A stretch of 9,872 nucleotides of DNA from IMG/VR virus record IMGVR_UViG_2663763428_000004, one strand, 5' to 3'. Made by a program: the position numbers and the translations under genes. The stretch is from a virus (taxonomy: Duplodnaviria > Heunggongvirae > Uroviricota > Caudoviricetes). The notes beneath the pieces are model-generated. The model was not told the origin of the DNA. It saw only the letters and a program-made list of their open reading frames with translations, and did not search any database. Position 1 is the stretch's first letter. Every line of letters starts with the position of its first letter. Shown piece after piece: positions 1-9,872 of this stretch.

Positions 1-157
1 TAATCGTGTCCTCTGTGGTGGGTGTGGTGAATGTTATGTGTGGTTTGTGAGTAGTGTCCTGTGCATAGTCAGGTGTGTGTTTATGTAGAACTTAGGCGAC
101 CACCGAGATCTACACATTTATATTCGGCGGCAGCGTCAGATGTGTAGAAGAGAGTAG
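1..157. other. Non-biological library-adapter read-through at contig end (Illumina P5 sequence, 8-nt index-like spacer, degenerate Nextera read-1 / Tn5 mosaic-end sequence)
   Basis: 95-115 ggcgaccaccgagatctacac exactly matches the 3' part of the P5 adapter. 116-123 is an 8-nt index-like spacer. 124-157 tcggcggcagcgtcagatgtgtagaagagagtag matches TCGTCGGCAGCGTCAGATGTGTATAAGAGACAG apart from a few substitutions to G. 1-94 is GT-rich junk typical of reading past the adapter. Confidence 0.8.
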
Positions 158-693
158 GTAATACCCAAATCCTTGCATCTTTTCGATATTTCCTCATCGA
201 AGAAATACATTACTGTATTTGAAATAATGGGAGAAGAAGGTGCTCCAACACTTAGGCGTAACGGGCTATTTCTTCTTAACTTCCAGAAGAAAAGATTTTT
301 AAGAACAAAGATATCAGTATCAGTTAGTTCAACGCCATAATCTTTTAAGACAGATAAAAGATTATGGGGTTTGATACTCATAAAAAAGTTTTTAAAATCC
401 ATTTTAAGCAAATAATCATTATTACAATGCATTAACGCATTAGATCTAATACTTTTATCGGCTTCATAAGCGAAAGCATTTTCATGAACTTTCAAATTAG
501 CCAACATATGATTGATTACTACCTTCTGTAAGGCTTTAACTTGCCTAGCTGGTTGTGCAATTAATCTATATCCATTACCATTTCTTTTGGCGATAGGATA
601 AATTTTATATCTGCGTGGAATAGTAACAATATACCTTTTAGCCTCTTCTTCGCTAAGAAAAAGACCTTTTGAAATATAACTTAGCAACTCCAT
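158..693 (-). CDS. Retron-type reverse transcriptase, 3'-truncated fragment (N-terminal part through motif B; contig ends just before the expected YxDD box)
   Basis: ORF-track entry 136..708. Retron-RT blocks read directly: YIVTIPRRYKIYPIAKRNGNGYRLIAQPARQVKALQ (compare Ec86 RIYTVEKKG..RTIYQPSRELKALQ), motif A LKMDFKNFF, motif B LSVGAPSSPIISN. Preferred start is the ATG at 693-691, preceded by GGAGG; the track start at 708 is a GTG. The last ~7 codons and the stop at 136-157 are adapter-derived. Confidence 0.85.
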
Positions 694-694
694 T

Positions 695-1681
695 CTAAGC
701 CCCTCCACGCACGATATTGATTTGATTTAGAGCATTTTTCCTTTTTTTTGCAGTCTCGTCCATATCTTTAGCATCCATACTTAAGTAAGATTGTCGGATT
801 GCAACCTTAATATTCATAGAATCCTTTATTTTACCACTAGCACTGATACCAAATTTAAGTTTACTCTCTCTATGCCCTCGGGAATAGAAGTAGTCTGTAC
901 CACTGTAAGATAATGATGAGGTTAATTTCATCTTTTCAAGCAAATAAAGTAAACGAGTTATTATTTTTTGTGGCACATCTATATCCATACAGTATAGTGC
1001 CCACTCTATTTCGCTTTTCTTGATTGGTTCTGATAAAAGGATTATTTCGTAAATCAATATAGCTAGGTGCCCAGTATTTTCAGGGTTATATCGCTCCGTT
1101 TTTTTTACACGTTTTAATCTAGAATGAATATCATGGTAGATAAGCTCAACCTCATCATATTTCATACGATCCGATTTTGGCCATGGATAAACTGATACTG
1201 AGGCCTCATCTATTTTTTTAAGATACTCCAAAGGGCCTAAATATATAAAAGAAGATCTAGCAGGAATATTTTTTCGTTCATTTCCCTCAATCTCCTCAAA
1301 TGGTGCGACTACATGCAATTTTTGAGCTAGAGACTTCCTATTAACAAATAATCCAAGCTCAACTAACGAACCTGCACTTTCTAAACAGATAACAACTAAT
1401 GTTGAAATATTTGCAATATCATCTTCAAAGCTCATTAGATCTGAATATGCCCCCTCTCTGAAGTAGTCATGGAAGTTCTCAGCTAAAATAAGAGAATCTG
1501 ACAATTCAGGTTTGTGGCCTGCTACATAAGTAAATATGTGGTCTCGTACACTCATTGGAGTGGAATTTATCGGCCCACCACAAACAAAAATAATAGGAGG
1601 CATGAACTGAACAGTGAAATTTGAATATTTCAAATCTCCAAACTGCTCTTGTAATGCATTCATATATGCAGAATCACTCAC
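695..1681 (-). CDS. Retron effector candidate with nucleoside 2-deoxyribosyltransferase-like (NDT-like) N-terminal domain, RcaT/Ec86-effector-like
   Basis: 328-aa ORF immediately upstream of the RT on the same strand (stop TAG 697-695, RT ATG 693). N-terminal IIFVCGGP followed by ESAGSLVELG, which resembles the NDT catalytic-glutamate motif (compare DVGLGMELGY). AT-rich like the RT. Start is uncertain: GTG at 1681 per the track, or ATG at 1663. Confidence 0.7.
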   Translation of the reverse strand: MSDSAYMNALQEQFGDLKYSNFTVQFMPPIIFVCGGPINSTPMSVRDHIFTYVAGHKPELSDSLILAENFHDYFREGAYSDLMSFEDDIANISTLVVICLESAGSLVELGLFVNRKSLAQKLHVVAPFEEIEGNERKNIPARSSFIYLGPLEYLKKIDEASVSVYPWPKSDRMKYDEVELIYHDIHSRLKRVKKTERYNPENTGHLAILIYEIILLSEPIKKSEIEWALYCMDIDVPQKIITRLLYLLEKMKLTSSLSYSGTDYFYSRGHRESKLKFGISASGKIKDSMNIKVAIRQSYLSMDAKDMDETAKKRKNALNQINIVRGGA

Positions 1682-1689
1682 CCTTGTGA

Positions 1690-1905
1690 CCCCCTACTCC
1701 AAAAGAAAAGGTGGCTAACCAGCCACCTTCGACCCCTTTACCTAAAGGATGCGCTTTAGACTTTCAGCAAGATCCTGAATGGAACGCAGTGGCATGAAGG
1801 ATCTTGCTGAAAGTGCTAAAGCGCAACCCTAAATGTCCACAATAAATTAGTGTCTGGCGAAACGCCCGACAAGGATAAACCTGTTATCCCGCGCGTAAAG
1901 GTAGG
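1690..1905 (-). ncRNA. Candidate retron msr-msd non-coding RNA (structure-based guess; boundaries approximate)
   Basis: Non-coding stretch directly upstream of the effector and RT. Interrupted 26-bp hairpin at 1751-1824 (perfect 16-bp core 1761-1776 / 1798-1813, 21-nt loop). Further hairpins at 1708-1729, 1857-1867 and around 1872-1888. Possible minus-strand promoter: -35 TTGAAA (plus 1931-1936), -10 TATCCT (plus 1909-1914). No a1/a2 repeat pair or branching G identified. Confidence 0.35.
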
Positions 1906-2261
1906 GTTAGGATAGCAAAAGATGCGAGATTTTCAATAAGTAAGCGTACTGGCTGCCAGCAACCACCTAAACCATTGACATTTAAACAAAAATAAATCTA
2001 ACAATTGAAAGCAATACCTTATTGAATACAGCATTCTTATATCTCTCTTGATATCGCAACATCACAATTATCACCGTTAGTGCGGGCAGCCCCGCACGCC
2101 TGCCCGCTTCGCTTAACAGACTGGTTTTCATGCACCTCATTAATCGTCTCAGAAGCCAGCACACAAGGGTTTTCTCGTCAAAAATGGTGCATAAGACTCA
2201 TGCGTTTTCATGCGCCATAGACATGCACTCATGCGCTCTCATGTCAGCCAGGAAAAGGGGG

Positions 2262-2290
2262 TAAAAAATCCCGGTACTGGACCGGGATTA
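2262..2290 (-). terminator. Rho-independent terminator ending the sid-psu-ogr operon
   Basis: Stem tcccggt (2269-2275) / accggga (2281-2287), 5-nt loop, A-run 2263-2268 on plus strand giving a U6 tract after the stem on the minus strand; about 20 nt downstream of the ogr stop. Confidence 0.6.
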
Positions 2291-2308
2291 CGTGGGCGTT
2301 CTTTCTAA

Positions 2309-2581
2309 TCAGACAGGAATCTGCTGACGGCTTGACAGTTTTGACGCGGAGCCATAGCGATTGAGCGTTTTCTGTTGTTTTTCCGGGGATTGTGCTTTGT
2401 CTGATAGCTGTTCATTGCGCCGGGGTTTCATGATTATCTTATCCACACTCTCCAGTGCCGTAAATGTGCAGGAACATTCCAGATTCTGGCACTGATACCA
2501 CGAGCGTTTAACTGACGGAGCTTCATAGGCTGCTGTTCTGGCGTGTGCAACTGTACCGCATTCCGGACATTTAAGTGCCAT
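2309..2581 (-). CDS. ogr: Ogr/Delta-family zinc-finger late-gene transcriptional activator (single Ogr-like domain)
   Basis: MALKCPECGTVAHARTAAYEAPSVKRSWYQCQNLECSCTFTALESV matches the P2 Ogr C-x2-C...C-x4-C block (compare HCPLCQHAAHARTSRY..RYHQCQNVNCSATF as I recall it). Preferred start is ATG 2581-2579 with AGGAG 8 nt upstream; the track start at 2590 is a GTG. Confidence 0.85.
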   Translation of the reverse strand: MALKCPECGTVAHARTAAYEAPSVKRSWYQCQNLECSCTFTALESVDKIIMKPRRNEQLSDKAQSPEKQQKTLNRYGSASKLSSRQQIPV

Positions 2582-2586
2582 TAATA

Positions 2587-3138
2587 TCACTCCTGTATAT
2601 CGTTAATGTCATTCAGGCGTTGCTGAAAACGCAGATGTTGTGCCGGGGTGTAAGAACCCTGGCAATCACGAATCATCCCGGGGTCAGGCATCAAACCGGA
2701 TTCATCCAGGATCTCACGATAATCCCCGGCAATTTCAGGCGGTGTTATTGCCAGCTGGCGAACCAGAGCACTGCGTAATATACGGGACGCAACGTCAACC
2801 CCTCCGCGCCCCTTCAGGAACGGAGCCAGTGCAGATGTCAGGGCTGCCCCATTCGCCTGCATAAAATTGCTGAGAGCGGCTTCTGTGCAGGCCTCCATCA
2901 GTAAATGCTGCGAGTAAATGCATTCGCGCGCAGCACAGTTAATTTGCCATTTCAGCACATCCAGACGTTCCCGCAGTAATTCGAGCTGTCGGGCATAATC
3001 TGCTGGTTTTTCTGTGGCAGCGAGGAGAGATGTTATCTGTTGTTCAACGGCTTTTCGGCTCTCATTATGTCCGGCCCACAGAATACGGGCATTCCGAAAA
3101 CTGGTAAGTGCCTGGTCAGGCGTGCCTCGGGCCGTCAT
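2587..3138 (-). CDS. psu: Psu-like polarity suppression protein (Rho antagonist / capsid decoration protein of P4-type satellites)
   Basis: 183 aa. Blocks KWQINCAARECIYSQ, FMQANGAALTSALAPFL and YTPAQ resemble P4 Psu as I recall it. AGGAG upstream of ATG 3138; ATGA overlap with the preceding gene. Confidence 0.7.
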   Translation of the reverse strand: MTARGTPDQALTSFRNARILWAGHNESRKAVEQQITSLLAATEKPADYARQLELLRERLDVLKWQINCAARECIYSQHLLMEACTEAALSNFMQANGAALTSALAPFLKGRGGVDVASRILRSALVRQLAITPPEIAGDYREILDESGLMPDPGMIRDCQGSYTPAQHLRFQQRLNDINDIQE

Positions 3139-3878
3139 ACTGCTTTCTCCTTCTCAGCAAGTTCCTGACGAACCTTAATTTTATGCATAGCTGCCGGAGA
3201 GAGTTGATTACTGAAATCCAGACGCGCCGCATAATCCGGGGCAACTCCCGCCAGTTTAAACACCGGGTCCTGCTCAGGCATCGCATCGTTAGCCAGAGCC
3301 GGTCTGGTGATATGTTTATGAATAAAGTCTTTCAGCACTGTGTCCGGGTCATTAACTGAATTCACCACACCCACAACGGCACTGGCTTCCCGGCCCATTG
3401 TGGATTTAAGCAGGCTCAGCGTCTGAATAAGCGCTTTTCCATGCGACTGCATAAAATCCTCCCAGATTTGTTTTGCGCGAATATCCACAAGAATGTTATG
3501 CGCGTGGATATACTTTCCGGCTAATTCTGCAGCTTTCTGCGGCAAAAGTGCATTTTCGCTTTCCTGAGCCGCCAGCAGCTCATCAAAATCCTCAAGCGTT
3601 TCTCGTCCCAGCGCAATTTCCGTGCGCAGTTTTTTCATTTCCTTTGAGACCACGCCCTGACTTTCACGAAACAGCGTGCGCCACTCCTCATTCAGTGTGT
3701 TCGTCGTGGCTTCCATTTCAGCGCGACGCTGGCGGATTGTCGCAATATTATCCGCTGCCGCTTTCTGCTGACGACGTGCTTCAAGCCATGCGTTTCTGGC
3801 TGTGTTCATGGTTTCCAGTGCCCGCTGCGTTACAGCCGGAAAAGTGGAAAGGTTGTTATTCACTGCGGTGTTGTTCAT
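3135..3878 (-). CDS. sid: Sid-like capsid size-determination (external scaffold) protein, Sid/Psu family
   Basis: 247 aa, first gene after the iteron region, AGGAG before ATG 3878, translationally coupled to psu. Predicted helical and charged-residue rich. WRTLFRESQGVVSKE and FMQSHGKALIQTL resemble Sid/Psu-family blocks. Assignment rests mainly on synteny with psu and ogr. Confidence 0.55.
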   Translation of the reverse strand: MNNTAVNNNLSTFPAVTQRALETMNTARNAWLEARRQQKAAADNIATIRQRRAEMEATTNTLNEEWRTLFRESQGVVSKEMKKLRTEIALGRETLEDFDELLAAQESENALLPQKAAELAGKYIHAHNILVDIRAKQIWEDFMQSHGKALIQTLSLLKSTMGREASAVVGVVNSVNDPDTVLKDFIHKHITRPALANDAMPEQDPVFKLAGVAPDYAARLDFSNQLSPAAMHKIKVRQELAEKEKAV

Positions 3879-3912
3879 GACTTCTCCTGTCGGGTTGGTT
3901 CGTTACGTCAAT

Positions 3913-3968
3913 TGTGTCGTGGCTGACACAAGCACACTATCGGTGCTCAGTGTGTGGTGGCTGGCACA
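3913..3968 (-). promoter_or_regulatory. Two TGT-N12-ACA dyads (candidate Ogr/Delta-dependent late promoter upstream of sid)
   Basis: tgtgtcgtggctgacaca at 3913-3930 and tgtgtggtggctggcaca at 3951-3968, each TGT-N12-ACA; the distal one is centred about 81 nt upstream of the sid ATG. Confidence 0.45.
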
Positions 3969-4054
3969 ACGGACGCTTGCGGTTATTCAGACGTGGCTAT
4001 GAAAGCCAGCCAGATAAAAATGCCCTCTGTTTCAGTCTGCTTTATGTCCCTGAT

Positions 4055-4252
4055 GCGGTGGAACAGGTGAAACATGTGTTACAGCTTTGTTTTATAAGGC
4101 ATTTATATACACTGCACCGGTGGAACATCGCGGGTAACAAGGTGGAACAGCGGATTGGCTGGCGTTACATCTGTTCCACCTCACTATTTCAGAAGGTGGA
4201 ACAGGTTCAGCCCTGTAAAATACGGTTGTTCCACCTGTTTCACCTGTTACCC
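4055..4252. repeat. Iteron cluster (candidate crr/ori-like replication element bound by the adjacent primase)
   Basis: GGTGGAACAG/T at 4057-4066, 4119-4128, 4141-4150, 4195-4204; inverted (C/T)TGTTCCACC at 4171-4180 and 4226-4235; variants GTGAAACA 4067-4074, TGTTTCACC 4236-4244, GGGTAACA/TGTTACCC 4132-4139 and 4245-4252. Lies in the non-coding gap just after the primase stop. Confidence 0.6.
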
Positions 4253-4278
4253 TTAATAAATAAGACTCACGCAAAGCC

Positions 4279-6951
4279 TTAACCCGGCACCTCGCTGTTG
4301 AAGACATAGAGCCTGCGGGGATTCATCTCTGGCGGGCGAATGGTTGTCTGGAGTTTGCCATCAGTGGAGGGCAGCAGGTATCCACGATCTGCGCACAGAC
4401 GCGCCACCTTGCGCGGGTCAAATCCCCTGCAGATTTCTTTCCAGCCGGACGGCATGACATAGAACGTAGTGACAGCTTCCGTGCCCTGCGCGGTACTGCC
4501 TTTCTCCACCCTGCGCCAGCCCACCATATTGCCGGGGCGGTTGCGCTCGTCATACCAGTCTGCAAAGCGGCTGTACTGATTCGCGGTAAAGAAACTGCGA
4601 ACCTGCTCCAGTGCGGCGATATCTTCCTGATTGGCGGTGTGCCCGCGATCTTTCAGCCATGCGTTCAGGCAGACGCGGGTTGCCCGCAGTGCTTCACCCT
4701 CAGGCCAGCCGGTGATACCCAGACGGGTTGCCAGTTCACCTGCCATCGCCACCAGAGCAAAGCGGTTCACAGCCCGGCCCACCTGATTGCCTGCATCTTT
4801 CGGAGTCAGGGCGGCAGCATATTCCTTCATCAGCGATTTTGCCTGTGCCGTTAGTCCGTTAAGATCAGCGGTCAGTGCTTTCAGCCACTCCCGGAACGGC
4901 GAACCGTAGTAGCAGGACGTGGCCCATTCAAGATGCTCTGCCAGAGCCTTGCCGCTGTCGAAGCCGTGCAGCTCCTCAAAAACGCCAAACTTCCCGGAAT
5001 CGCTGGGGATCTGGATCATCCTGACTTCCATCCCGGCAAAAGTACGCTCACCGGCCTTTGCCGCATGTTCGGTCAGAGACAACTCGCCAGTTGAAAAGAA
5101 CAACAGGCGCCAATGCTTACGGGTACGCAGCTCACCGTCCGTACCGGCACGGCCCTTGCCCTGACCGTTTGCCAGCATGTAGGCGATATTGCCTGCCTCG
5201 CGTCCGTCAACTTCCCGGATCTCATCAAGCATCATGGCGGCATCGTTGCGGCGGCTGGCGCATCCCTCCAGCGCGTTGCCGGTGGCCCGCCATGTCTGCC
5301 AGTAGTCAGGCCCGCCGCAGACGGAGGTTGCCGCTTTCATGGTGGTGGTCTTACCGTCTGTCGATTCCCCTTTGAGGTGGTAGCCGCCGCCGTCCATACC
5401 AACCAGCCGTAACAGTGGTGCAGCAAAGGCCAGGCTGACAGCAAATGCCACGCGGGAGTTGCCGGTACAGTAGCGGGATACATGCTCCCGCCATTCCTCT
5501 GTTGTGCCCGACACGCGGAAATCACGCCCCTGCACGGAAGTGGTCTGGAGAATGACACCCTCTGCACCTTCACCGCTGACCTCATCCTGCAGGACGTAAA
5601 CCTGACCATGCCAGCCAGTACGACTGACGCAGGTCACGCGGCGTTCCGGTTTACACAGTGAGATATATTCCATCAGGCGTGCGCGTGCCTCACCGGTGGT
5701 GCTGATATAAGACAGCCCGTTAACCAGCAATACCCGGCGCAGTTCCTCACCACTGCCGCTCAGCATTTCCATCGGCATCGCCCAGCGGCGACACTCACCC
5801 CACGTATCTTCCCATTCCAGCAGTCGTCCGAAGTTACCGCCATCGGCATCGCAGGTGATTGCCGTCACGCGCAGCGGGCTGCATATTTTGACGTTCTGGA
5901 TCTCCGTCTCACCGTTGCGCTGTACCTGCTTTTCATACCAGAGATATTCCTGGGTAAGACGGAACCCGTGCGGCAGTTGCGTGCGGCCCTCCCCGCACAG
6001 CACCAGACCGTTACGAAAGGCTTCACGGGCGCGGGTAATACCGTGCTCCCGATGGAAGTCATTCCAGTCGGCCTTAATCTCTCCCGGTGGCAGCGTCATC
6101 CAGCCGCCAACAGCTTTTGCCGCCCGTTCAGCAAAGGCTCTGCCGGGATTCTCACCCCCGTCCTGAAAATCGTTATCACCGGCGATGATAATTTTTACCT
6201 CAGGCCAGCGTGCCCGCAGCGACTGCGCCACATTGGGCAGGTTGCCCGCAGATATGGCAGCCACTACGCATCCGGCAGTGAGCTGACTTACCGTCAGCGC
6301 CGTAGCGTAACCTTCGGTAATCACCACCTGTACCGGTGGTTCAGACGGTAACGGGCTGAGCGACACAAACGCGCCTTTCATCGTGCTGCCGGGCAGTATG
6401 CTTTTTTCACCCGTCGGGGCGATAAGCTGTGCACCAGTCACGGCTCCGGTGTTGGTCGTGAGTGGTAACAGCAGGGAACCGGCAGGAAAATCCTTACCGC
6501 TGATATGCTGCACGCTTCCGGTCAGAGAGGCCGGGTATCCGGCGAACCCTTTTCCTGTCAGATAGGCGCTTTCTCCCGTGTGGCTCTCTTTCATCAGCGC
6601 CGCCACGGTAAGACCCATGTCGCGTTTAGGGGCTTTTTTTCTGGCAGGCTTAACAGGCAGTTCCTGCACATCCGGCACATTAAGCACCTGCGCCACCTCC
6701 TGCGCAGCCTTTCTGACGCTGTAACCGGTTACGAGCTTAACCAGATCCAGACCGTCACCATTGCCACACTGGCTGCAGATCCACGTCCCGCGCCCGTCAA
6801 GGTCATCAAGGCGAAAACGATCCTTGCCCCCACATTTCGGGCAGGGACCGTGCCTGCCGTTTTCAGGTACATCAATACGCAGCATCTGGAGAATAACGGG
6901 CCATTTCCCCCGTGCGGCGGCTGAAATCTGCGTAACCGTCTGTATTGTCAT
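4279..6951 (-). CDS. Satellite primase-helicase, P4 alpha-like (N-terminal zinc ribbon, TOPRIM, C-terminal P-loop NTPase)
   Basis: 890 aa. CPKCGG..(x19)..CSQCG zinc ribbon (coded about 6766-6843); TOPRIM-like VVITEGYATA...IIIAGDND; Walker A GESTDGKTT. ATG 6951 with GGGGGA upstream; ATGA overlap with the upstream gene. Confidence 0.9.
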   Translation of the reverse strand: MTIQTVTQISAAARGKWPVILQMLRIDVPENGRHGPCPKCGGKDRFRLDDLDGRGTWICSQCGNGDGLDLVKLVTGYSVRKAAQEVAQVLNVPDVQELPVKPARKKAPKRDMGLTVAALMKESHTGESAYLTGKGFAGYPASLTGSVQHISGKDFPAGSLLLPLTTNTGAVTGAQLIAPTGEKSILPGSTMKGAFVSLSPLPSEPPVQVVITEGYATALTVSQLTAGCVVAAISAGNLPNVAQSLRARWPEVKIIIAGDNDFQDGGENPGRAFAERAAKAVGGWMTLPPGEIKADWNDFHREHGITRAREAFRNGLVLCGEGRTQLPHGFRLTQEYLWYEKQVQRNGETEIQNVKICSPLRVTAITCDADGGNFGRLLEWEDTWGECRRWAMPMEMLSGSGEELRRVLLVNGLSYISTTGEARARLMEYISLCKPERRVTCVSRTGWHGQVYVLQDEVSGEGAEGVILQTTSVQGRDFRVSGTTEEWREHVSRYCTGNSRVAFAVSLAFAAPLLRLVGMDGGGYHLKGESTDGKTTTMKAATSVCGGPDYWQTWRATGNALEGCASRRNDAAMMLDEIREVDGREAGNIAYMLANGQGKGRAGTDGELRTRKHWRLLFFSTGELSLTEHAAKAGERTFAGMEVRMIQIPSDSGKFGVFEELHGFDSGKALAEHLEWATSCYYGSPFREWLKALTADLNGLTAQAKSLMKEYAAALTPKDAGNQVGRAVNRFALVAMAGELATRLGITGWPEGEALRATRVCLNAWLKDRGHTANQEDIAALEQVRSFFTANQYSRFADWYDERNRPGNMVGWRRVEKGSTAQGTEAVTTFYVMPSGWKEICRGFDPRKVARLCADRGYLLPSTDGKLQTTIRPPEMNPRRLYVFNSEVPG

Positions 6952-7331
6952 ACTTCCCCCTGATACAACGTCACACCGGTACTGCAGAAGTCATCAAAGG
7001 CCGCCGGAAGCGTGCGGTACATCTCCGCCATCACTTCACAGCCGCGCGCGGTCAGTACCGGCGGCGCGGTCAGCAGTGACGGCTCCAGCATGTCAGTCAG
7101 CAGTGCCAGCGCGGCAGCGGCGCCCTGTGCTTCGCCGTACTCGTTAATCAGTACGCACTCGATATGCAGCGCAATGGCCATTTCAATACGCTCCACCGTC
7201 AGGCTGTGCGGACCATACTGATCACTGCCAGTTTCGTTCAGCATTTTCTGCCGCCATGCTGAAGCAATAGCCCGCCGGTAAAGCGCGGTGGTCATTTCTG
7301 CCGGGAAAATGGAAACCTGCGGCTGGTTCAT
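6948..7331 (-). CDS. Hypothetical protein (127 aa), translationally coupled upstream of the primase
   Basis: ATG at 7331; ATGA overlaps at both ends; GC content like the satellite core. No motif recognised. Confidence 0.6.
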   Translation of the reverse strand: MNQPQVSIFPAEMTTALYRRAIASAWRQKMLNETGSDQYGPHSLTVERIEMAIALHIECVLINEYGEAQGAAAALALLTDMLEPSLLTAPPVLTARGCEVMAEMYRTLPAAFDDFCSTGVTLYQGEV

Positions 7332-7612
7332 CTGGCACCTCCTTCAATCAGTGCGCAGCTGTGTGCAATATCCGTCAAATCTGCCAGCAGGTACTCCATC
7401 AGCGCGGCGACACCATGCGCACAGCCAGCGTCCAGTGCTCCGGCCTGAGACGGGTATTCAGAAAAGAGAAGCTGGAGCATGTCGCAGGCATTTCTTGCGC
7501 GGGTCAGTTTTCCGAAACTGTCCTCTGACAACCCATAGGCAAAAGCACCGGTATTGTGTTTTTCAGGCAAAGTGTGGCCCTGAGCACCGTTGTGCCCGTT
7601 TGAAATATTCAT
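7328..7612 (-). CDS. Hypothetical protein (94 aa)
   Basis: ATG 7612 with GGAG upstream; ATGA overlap with the next gene. No motif recognised. Its position is analogous to the small regulators upstream of alpha in P4, but that is positional only. Confidence 0.5.
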   Translation of the reverse strand: MNISNGHNGAQGHTLPEKHNTGAFAYGLSEDSFGKLTRARNACDMLQLLFSEYPSQAGALDAGCAHGVAALMEYLLADLTDIAHSCALIEGGAR

Positions 7613-7643
7613 CGTGGATTACTCCGTTTTCAGCGGTATTTTG

Positions 7644-8003
7644 TCAGAGAAACTTTGAATAGTGACCGTCGTCAGGCTCAGCAGAACGCCGTATGCTACG
7701 CTCCCGCCAGCGGATAAATAGCACAGACGGATGCAGTGTCAGCGGGCCGGAACCACTACCGCCAGCAGGAGCTGGTGCAGGCTTCAAGAGCGGTACATCA
7801 AACAGGCGCGTATACCGCTGTTCAAACCATGCCAGAGGGCAGGAAGAAAGCTGGTTGTCGCTGTCATGACGTATCAGCACTTCACAGCTGAATTCAGGAT
7901 TAACCAGCGCCACAGAGGGCGAGGCTTCTATTAATCGGATAATCGTGACCGTCCAGCCACGTTCATGCTGCCAGCGTTCGCCGGGGTGCGGATAATTACG
8001 CAT
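7644..8003 (-). CDS. Hypothetical protein (~119 aa)
   Basis: Track ORF 7644..8033 begins at a TTG; I prefer the ATG at 8003-8001, which is preceded by GGAGGTG. No motif recognised. Confidence 0.5.
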   Translation of the reverse strand: MRNYPHPGERWQHERGWTVTIIRLIEASPSVALVNPEFSCEVLIRHDSDNQLSSCPLAWFEQRYTRLFDVPLLKPAPAPAGGSGSGPLTLHPSVLFIRWRERSIRRSAEPDDGHYSKFL

Positions 8004-8172
8004 GTTCACCTCCGCAGGGAATGCGCCCGGCAAAGCTCAGTACATAGTCCGGGGCAAGTCTGCGCCGCGCTGACCGCTCGTTATCTGCGGTGATCCTTAA
8101 CATCACAGGACGGGCATTGCGTTGACTGCGGTTGATCGCCGCAAATAACCAGGTACACTTCTGTTTAGCCAT
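7996..8172 (-). CDS. Small basic hypothetical protein (58 aa), first gene of the leftward operon
   Basis: ATG at 8172-8170 preceded by GAGG; this is the 3' part of track ORF 7996..8730, whose upstream portion crosses the promoter and operator region and is not credible as coding. Confidence 0.35.
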   Translation of the reverse strand: MAKQKCTWLFAAINRSQRNARPVMLRITADNERSARRRLAPDYVLSFAGRIPCGGEHA

Positions 8173-8247
8173 CTTCGTTACCTCATTTAGCGGATTGGTC
8201 AGAAGCCCGGTTAGTGTTGCTGCACTGTCGGGCTTCGCACTCACAAG

Positions 8248-8340
8248 GTGAATCGCACCTTTAATTTTAAAGCTACCCTTAAGTGAATCGCACTTCAAGC
8301 TTTTTATTATCATTTTTTTTGCATATACTGAATCGCACCT
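8248..8340. promoter_or_regulatory. Three direct repeats (G/C)TGAATCGCAC(C/T)T in the divergent control region, with a candidate plus-strand promoter
   Basis: Repeats at 8248-8260, 8283-8295 and 8328-8340; -10-like TATACT at 8324-8329 abuts the third repeat; weak -35 TTTTTA at 8301-8306. Confidence 0.45.
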
Positions 8341-8359
8341 AACGCGAGGAGATCCAGTA

Positions 8360-8545
8360 ATGGCAACGAGTTCAACTAACAACAAGTCGCAGCAACTTAA
8401 TGCTCGTTTCCCACATGATGTAGTTGCAGAATTAGAAAGCAACCTTGAAGATGGAGAAACGAAAGCGCAATTCATTGTTACGGCTGTAAAAGGCGAGATT
8501 AAACGCCGACAGCGCAGGAAAAATAAGCCAGAGCAAGGTAGTTGA
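8360..8545 (+). CDS. Small ribbon-helix-helix (CopG/Arc-like) DNA-binding protein, candidate repressor
   Basis: 61 aa; GAGGAG 8 nt before the ATG; N-terminal ARFPHDVVAELESNL...AQFIVTAVKGEI fits the RHH strand-helix-helix pattern; basic C-terminal tail. No toxin partner downstream. Confidence 0.55.
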   Translation: MATSSTNNKSQQLNARFPHDVVAELESNLEDGETKAQFIVTAVKGEIKRRQRRKNKPEQGS

Positions 8546-8608
8546 ATAGAGAAGCCAACAGACGTTCTCTCTGTTTCCATGTTAATTTCAGTAAGCGACA
8601 ATATTTTT

Positions 8609-8642
8609 AAGCCCACAAATTCATTATGTCGGGCTTTTTTAT
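8609..8642 (+). terminator. Intrinsic terminator after the RHH gene
   Basis: Stem 8609-8617 / 8627-8636 with one bulge, 9-nt loop, then T6; sits between the convergent RHH and alpA genes. Confidence 0.5.
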
Positions 8643-8872
8643 TAGTGATTTTCATATCGCTCACCACGAGAGGCATATATTTGCTCTTGAATCCAGTGAT
8701 CCACTTCGCTTTCAACAAATGAAATTGCACGAGTTCCTATTTTCACCGGACGGGGAAATGTATTGTTTGCAAGCTGTTTGTAAAGCCATGCCTTGCTACG
8801 CTGAACGCGTCTTAAGACCTCTTTTGCTGAGATAAGAGTCTGATTATCTGAAAAGCTGTTTGCATATTCCAT
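8642..8872 (-). CDS. alpA: AlpA/Vis-family phage transcriptional regulator / excisionase-like protein
   Basis: LISAKEVLRRVQRSKAWLYKQLANNTFPRPVKIGTRAISFVESEVDHWI matches the AlpA helix-turn-helix pattern. Preferred start is ATG 8872 with GGAG upstream; the track start at 8917 is a GTG. Confidence 0.8.
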   Translation of the reverse strand: MEYANSFSDNQTLISAKEVLRRVQRSKAWLYKQLANNTFPRPVKIGTRAISFVESEVDHWIQEQIYASRGERYENH

Positions 8873-9248
8873 CTTGTTACTCCGTGTTCTACTTAAGTTC
8901 ACGGTGACTTTAAACACTGGGAAAAAGTGATTCTAGTGATAATGGAATCTATTAAGACAAATATTGATTCTATTGAAAAACAATAATCTCCACTGAAAAA
9001 AGAAGTAATATTCATATGAAAGAACACGGAGAGAAGGAAATGCACAAAAAAAACAAAATCAATAGAATTCATATGGATAGGATGGAAAATCAAAAAATCA
9101 TATGTCAAAAGGTATTATTGCATTTTAACGATTCATATTACCTAGGAATTAGCACAGTATTACACCATATTACATCGTATTACCCCCTATAGCCCGTTAG
9201 AGCCTCTTGTGGCCCTTCTATTGAGAGATAGCCAGAAAATTAATAAAT

Positions 9249-9851
9249 TTACTCTCCGTATTTTATAATGTCTTTCCCAAGCTTTATTTTCTTATAAAAC
9301 GTAGCTTTTTTAACCCCTTTCATTAGAATCTCATTCTCATTACAAAAAGAAACAATATCATTATATATAACACTATTATCGCTATAACTTACCTTTCCAT
9401 GTCTCTTAAGCAATTCAATTAGTAAATAAATTAATTTACAACTATAATTATCCTCATCATCTTTTCTGTACTGCCCTCTACCATTACTCCTTAATTTTTT
9501 ACCAACTTCATATAATTCACTTCCTCCTAACGTCATTAGAATATCACTCCAATCTTTATTTTTTACCTGTTGTCGTAATGCGTTCTCAATTCTCTCCTTA
9601 ATCTCCACAGGTACAATACCTTCCCTCTGAAAGATATAAGCGGCAGTTAATAATAAGTTCGCCTCCACTTTTTGCGTGGCGGATACGTTTTTATATTCAT
9701 TAATTAATTGTAGATTTCTGGTTATTGCCTTTCTTAATCTAATAACCTCTTTTAATTGAACCTCAGTCAATTCATCATTTTCGGTATCATAGTCAAAACC
9801 ATTCATAGCAAGCGCCACTTCGTGTGGCGTTATGTAAGTTACCCTATTAAA
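9249..9851 (-). CDS. AT-rich hypothetical protein, probably 5'-truncated by the contig end
   Basis: Track ORF 9249..9818 starts at a GTG. Neither that GTG nor the first ATG (9806) has a Shine-Dalgarno sequence, and the frame stays open up to the adapter at 9854. No recognisable motif. Confidence 0.55.
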   Translation of the reverse strand, partial: FNRVTYITPHEVALAMNGFDYDTENDELTEVQLKEVIRLRKAITRNLQLINEYKNVSATQKVEANLLLTAAYIFQREGIVPVEIKERIENALRQQVKNKDWSDILMTLGGSELYEVGKKLRSNGRGQYRKDDEDNYSCKLIYLLIELLKRHGKVSYSDNSVIYNDIVSFCNENEILMKGVKKATFYKKIKLGKDIIKYGE

Positions 9852-9853
9852 AT

Positions 9854-9872
9854 CTGTCTCTTATCAACATCT
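9854..9872. other. Non-biological Nextera mosaic-end remnant at contig end
   Basis: ctgtctcttatcaacatct matches CTGTCTCTTATACACATCT at 17 of 19 positions. Confidence 0.75.

Follow-up and report, generated by a model that had tools for sequence, protein, structure and literature searches.

An untrimmed Nextera adapter at the left end of an Escherichia coli satellite-prophage contig and the false stop it lends to a retron reverse transcriptase gene

The stretch of DNA analysed here (9,872 nt in full, hereafter the window) carries at its left end a minus-strand ORF, 708..136, that encodes a fragment of a reverse transcriptase (RT). This raises a simple question: did the retron lose the remainder of its RT gene, or was the end of the gene supplied by the sequencing library? 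In a preliminary description, made from the letters alone, bases 1-157 had been regarded as adapter and the RT stop codon as an artefact of it. The evidence given below shows that the left end is indeed a library artefact and not a real feature, that its boundary lies slightly elsewhere, and that there is nothing new in the underlying biology. The features identified are collected in Table 1.

Table 1 Features of the window, from left to right
Feature	Position	Strand	Basis
Non-genomic sequence without assignable match	1-94	.	Composition, no genome match
Illumina P5 flow-cell sequence, positions 9-29, GGCGACCACCGAGATCTACAC	95-115	+	21/21 exact
i5 index slot, ATTTATAT	116-123	+	Exactly 8 nt between P5 and read-1 sequence
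Nextera read-1 sequence plus mosaic-end positions 1-16	124-153	+	28/30; T>G at 127 and 147
Adapter-encoded false C-terminus, Leu-Leu-His-Ile-stop	136-150	-	Codon-by-codon comparison with genome
Genuine 5' part of retron St85-family RT gene	152-693	-	Codons 1-181 of 310
NDT-like effector	695-1681	-	PADLOC NDT_II-A, 1.8e-87
Rfam STnc400	1695-1831	-	55.4 bits, below gathering score 80
Rfam msr	1836-1902	-	42.2 bits, below gathering score 52
Ogr/Delta-like gene	2309-2581	-	RefSeq annotation
Psu	2587-3138	-	
Sid-like gene	3135-3878	-	
Primase of P4-alpha type	4279-6951	-	Zn-ribbon, Toprim, DUF927
DUF5375 protein	6948-7331	-	
AlpA-like regulator; Icd-like and small ORFs		-	
Hypothetical gene	~9249-9833	-	Called gene on source contig
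Complete Tn5 mosaic end, reverse complement, CTGTCTCTTATCAACATCT	9854-9872	+	17/19, AC>CA at 9865-9866

Alignment of the standard Illumina oligonucleotides to the window revealed that positions 95-153 form a single composite match to the Nextera i5 adapter on the plus strand. The exact match to P5 (reference flow-cell sequence AATGATACGGCGACCACCGAGATCTACAC) that had been described holds for positions 9-29 of the oligonucleotide only; positions 1-8 (AATGATAC) are unrecognisable where they would be expected, at window 87-94, which read AGAACTTA. The near-exact match to the Nextera read-1 and mosaic-end sequences, in turn, was recovered as reported. The observed letters at 124-153 are TCGgCGGCAGCGTCAGATGTGTAgAAGAGA, the corresponding adapter segment is TCGTCGGCAGCGTCAGATGTGTATAAGAGA, and the match consists of 13 of the 14 bases of the read-1 or Tn5 'A' sequence (TCGTCGGCAGCGTC) at 124-137, with T>G at 127, followed by mosaic-end positions 1-16 at 138-153 (15/16). 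The complete 19-bp mosaic end is AGATGTGTATAAGAGACAG; at the left end of the window it is incomplete, and its positions 17-19 (CAG) are replaced by genomic GTA at 154-156. Altogether, 49 of the 51 specified adapter bases were matched with the correct 8-nt spacing, and the 59-nt composite pattern, with at most two mismatches allowed, had a single occurrence in the window and none in 200 dinucleotide-preserving shuffles. The full 62-nt adapter pattern found no match in the window even with three mismatches because the last three mosaic-end bases differ, and it was this failure that led to the corrected junction. The index ATTTATAT matched none of 18 Nextera i5 indexes with which it was compared. 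The nearest of them, N502, was rejected, as its three mismatches fall outside the pattern of A and C confusions described below. TruSeq adapters and P7 were likewise rejected, with local alignments at chance level only (scores 11-12).

To locate the beginning of genomic DNA, window 1-2400 was compared by megablast with 5,426 complete E. coli genomes. At least 80% of this query is covered by 156 finished genomes, and 154 of all matching records show at least 99% identity to it. Among the matches listed, all start at base 152, and 15 of 15 show 100% identity over 152-2400. Strain M217 (NZ_AP019189.1), aligned with the window without gaps, has an identity of 100% over 152-2400, 19% over 95-151 and 27% over 1-94. 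Bases 152-157 (GAGTAG) match the finished genomes exactly, the GA at 152-153 being common to adapter and genome. Judged by these alignments, verified genome begins at 152, and the boundary runs between 151 and 152, six bases to the left of the 157|158 border proposed previously; the trim point was placed there because identity with finished genomes starts at 152 and is random to its left. Thus, the claim that bases 1-157 are not genomic stands for 1-151 and fails for 152-157. The observation named beforehand as a refutation of the adapter reading, the 157 bp as a contiguous stretch of finished genomes, was looked for in the E. coli genomes and did not refute it, all matches listed beginning at 152. 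The suspicion of low quality beside the left junction was not borne out, given that 152-9053 shows zero mismatches to M217.

The consequences of this boundary for the RT gene are direct. In the finished genomes the gene encodes WP_000422112.1, a "retron St85 family RNA-directed DNA polymerase" of 310 aa, which starts according to their RefSeq annotation with the ATG at 693 and not with the GTG at 708. The window product is identical to residues 1-181 of this protein (181/181) and then continues with LLHI and a stop in place of RYADD: the protein ends with ...GITYSLLHI-stop in the window and reads ...GITYSRYADD... in the genome, the respective codons being CTT CTA CAC ATC TGA and AGG TAT GCT GAT GAT. 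The false TGA lies at 136-138 on the minus strand, within the adapter. Codon 181 is a hybrid, TCT in the window and TCA in the genome; both encode serine, and the change is synonymous by chance. The fragment therefore ends two residues before Y183-A-D-D, whereas the identical gene of finished genomes has RYADD. The true continuation of the gene past the junction, as reverse complement in window orientation, is ...CCTTATGCTGATGATCTTACG. The missing part amounts to 129 RT codons, including those of the catalytic YADD. Profile searches gave the same picture, in which only the N-terminal ~58-73% of the profiles is covered: PADLOC RT_II-A matched at 1.7e-69 over profile positions 1-177 of 304, and Pfam RVT_1 at 4.5e-16 over positions 2-149 of 205. 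Both earlier assertions, that the stop is created by adapter and that the gene continues beyond the contig, are confirmed in this way, and the truncation of RT in the contig is an artefact of assembly, not biology.

If the left end was formed by adapter read-through, is there any trace of the same process at the other end of the contig? The complete reverse-complement mosaic end found there (Table 1) was not reproduced in any of 200 shuffles, and the adapter faces inward at either end. Finished genomes agree with the window up to 9853 and diverge after it. Over 8900-9853, 205 E. coli genomes match; the best are 99.9% identical and none is 100% identical. Relative to M217, the sole substitution within 8900-9853 is the C at 9843, which lies eleven bases short of the junction and is probably a read error. 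Low quality beside a junction is thus seen near the right end only. A run of A at ~9046-9054 is one A shorter in the window than in M217; this length is probably common to other strains because the best genomes (99.9% over 8900-9853) allow only one difference.

Another question concerns the nature of bases 1-94, which had also been included in the adapter. This part of the claim did not hold: the sequence is rich in G and T and matches nothing, and the start of P5 cannot be recognised in it. Its G+T content is 74.5% (equal to 74.5% A+C in the read direction, that is, on the minus strand), while genomic 94-nt stretches of the window reach at most 70.2%, with a mean of 49%, so that all of them fall below it. 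The 27% identity to the homologous position of M217 corresponds to random expectation, and a blastn search of the 5,426 E. coli genomes, with E<=10 as the limit, gave no match. Poly-A is usual past the flow-cell oligonucleotide; it is absent here. Most likely, bases 1-94 are base calls made past the end of the library molecule.

Taken together, these data make it almost certain that the whole draft contig derives from an untrimmed Nextera library, in which adapter read-through extended the left end and produced the false RT stop. In such a scenario, reads of an Illumina library prepared by Nextera (Tn5 tagmentation) would have entered the assembly without adapter trimming, and the left end would have been extended by a minus-strand read that started in a short insert within the retron RT gene, crossed the mosaic end, the read-1 primer site, the i5 index and P5, and went on being base-called past the end of the template, yielding bases 1-94. 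The in-frame TGA carried by the adapter leads gene callers to report a 'complete' RT of 185-190 aa, and the right end bears a mirror-image artefact that retains the mosaic end only. What the data show directly is which adapter is present, where the junction lies, how the true gene reads and from which contig the window comes. The order of genome, mosaic end, read-1 site, index, P5 and noise is that of a read 2 running off a short insert. On 4-colour Illumina instruments, A and C share one laser. All recognisable errors at both ends are confusions of A with C in the read direction (A>C at 127 and 147, minus strand; A>C at 9843; AC>CA at 9865-66), and for this reason we infer that a single read 2 of low quality, in its late cycles on a 4-colour instrument, gave rise to the extension.

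One detail of the left end requires a separate explanation. In a molecule from a Tn5 library the mosaic end must be present with all 19 bases, and here the junction is non-canonical, with only 16 of the 19 recognisable and bases 152-156 agreeing with the genome. The original read may have had a canonical junction at 156|157 (...CTGTCTCTTATACACATCT, with the insert starting at window 157), after which consensus or mismatch correction would have replaced CAG at 154-156 by GTA, the bases of the genomic majority; reads from the genome would span the shared GA in their alignment and lose the part beyond 151 by clipping. Alternatively, the junction read could be a chimera, arising by PCR template switching or by a fusion resembling an adapter dimer and joined at the GA microhomology of 152-153. 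The presence of just 16 mosaic-end bases, together with a 2-nt overlap common to adapter and genome at the breakpoint, fits a chimera, and we regard it as unlikely but deserving of serious attention: the right end displays a complete 19-nt mosaic end with a clean junction, which points to ordinary read-through in this library, and the change of CAG to genomic GTA is exactly what correction by read mapping would do. Because the right end shows such ordinary read-through, we favour polishing of a canonical read-through over a chimera as the origin of the junction. Were the chimera true, the end would still be an artefact, and only its origin would differ.

Explanations in which the left end is not an artefact fare considerably worse. 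Bases 1-157 could in theory be real DNA of the strain, resulting from a rearrangement or insertion such as an engineered Tn5-based transposon that truncated the RT gene. Mosaic ends are known in real mini-Tn5 insertions, and one is located at each end of the contig; here, however, the mosaic end is preceded by a read-1 site, an 8-nt index slot and P5, which occur in library molecules only and not in transposons. Moreover, the two inward-facing mosaic ends enclose 9.7 kb of otherwise unaltered prophage, identical to that of more than 150 genomes, and bases 1-94 match nothing. The reading of 1-157 as real DNA is effectively refuted, and an insertion of this kind is hardly credible. A chance resemblance of a genomic region to adapter is refuted and has a negligible probability: beyond the 3 + 8 unmatched adapter bases at the ends of the match nothing speaks for it, against the number of adapter bases matched at the correct spacing, their absence from shuffled sequences and the different sequence that finished genomes carry at this position. 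There is, finally, a slim chance that the break also marks a real change of the gene itself, such as an insertion of a mobile element or a deletion in the 3' half of RT. Such a change would block the assembler, so that nothing but the adapter-bearing read could extend the contig. In related genomes a degenerate integrase, an IS3 fragment and a group II intron are found within 3 kb of the contig break, beyond RT.

What, then, is the element whose end was altered? All genes of the contig lie on the minus strand, and the contig is a P4-like satellite prophage whose defence hotspot holds a type II-A retron (695-9853, minus strand). In M217 the element adjoins an integrase, tRNA-Leu and ahr/yjgR, the surroundings to be expected of such a satellite; its site in related genomes is likewise at tRNA-Leu beside ahr. 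In M217, too, the homologue of the hypothetical gene near the right end has 212 aa and extends past the end of the contig. The 19-mer of the P2/P4 cos site was not found in the window at up to three mismatches. Downstream of the Ogr/Delta-like gene lies an AT-rich cassette composed of an ncRNA, an effector and RT. A long interrupted hairpin at 1747-1828 (22+13 bp) is typical of an msd stem, and the match to STnc400, a Salmonella sRNA family, places that family over the msd region. Both the msr and the STnc400 matches remain below their Rfam gathering scores in what is nonetheless a bona fide St85-family retron. The junction 42-mer was not found in IMG/VR viral contigs or JGI metagenome contigs, and window 1-2400 had no match in a phage collection; it is from chromosomes that the element is known, as a prophage or satellite.

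Retron St85, or Retron-Sen2, of Salmonella is of type II-A and comprises msr-msd, the NDT-like effector RcaT and RT. The retron of the window has the same gene order, from ncRNA through effector to RT, and the full-length E. coli RT shares 95% identity over 310 aa with a Salmonella 'retron St85 family' RT. Unlike in Salmonella, the host here is E. coli, the carrier is a P4-like satellite, and the RT is represented by a fragment of 181 codons, the last difference being the artefact. P4-like satellites possess a defence hotspot between psu and int, with retrons among its occupants (Rousset et al. 2022, PMC9122126). The succession of a P4-alpha-type primase, Sid-like gene, Psu and Ogr/Delta followed by a retron resembles this psu-int hotspot as well as the retronphage phiR73. 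The retron is therefore a known kind of P4 hotspot cargo, with no notable difference.

The artefact, too, has precedents. In a survey of public microbial assemblies by the Moeller lab (BMC Genomics 2024, PMC11536531), adapter was reported at contig extremities, pointing inward, with the reverse complement at the other end and at contig breaks. The window agrees with these cases in having adapter at contig ends, pointing inward, at a contig break. The cases described there concern a TruSeq-type universal adapter (AGATCGGAAGAG...), and Nextera has zero occurrences in the text of that paper, whereas the window carries Nextera i5 and P5. The left end of the window differs further from those cases by its 94 nt of off-template calls and by the three mosaic-end bases missing at the junction.

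How far has the false product spread? An exact look-up of the 185-aa protein led to one contig, GenBank LNIE01000146.1 of the E. coli isolate assembly GCA_001463325.1, whose 9,872 bp constitute the entire window. The protein is on record as RefSeq WP_244493317.1 and UniParc/UniRef100_UPI000AB6B13A, its last four residues (LLHI) being encoded by adapter. The WP_244493317.1 record lacks the partial flag that other fragments of its 90% cluster bear, because the in-frame stop supplied by the adapter lets the truncated gene pass as complete. Taken at face value, the ORF yields a 185-aa "RT lacking YADD", that is, a false "degenerate or inactivated retron". Positions 1-151 and 9854-9872 should be trimmed, and 9843 should be treated with caution. 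The case has no biological significance; it is a worked example of the spread of untrimmed adapter, of modest value for database hygiene.

In a search with bases 1-151 alone (5,426 E. coli genomes, E<=10), the only matches were to two other E. coli genomes, both apparently through adapter contamination. The two records deserve mention in their own right. The 'complete' E. coli chromosome NZ_CP071328.1 (strain 4114, RefSeq) contains an error-laden full Nextera i5 adapter at ~3147790-3147865, in an intergenic position beside yibL; it reads AATGATACGGCGACCAACGAAAACTACAC-CGTCTAAT-TCGTCGGCAGCGTCAGATGTGTATACGAGAC, and its index matches S510. In another 'complete' E. coli chromosome, NZ_OZ040716.1, the sequence AATGATCCGGCGACCACCGAGATCTACAC is found at 3735199-3735219 between lacZ and lacI, a sign that this finished assembly may contain adapter or engineered sequence. 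This insert apparently replaces part of the lac promoter/operator region, and the adjoining bases look error-rich.
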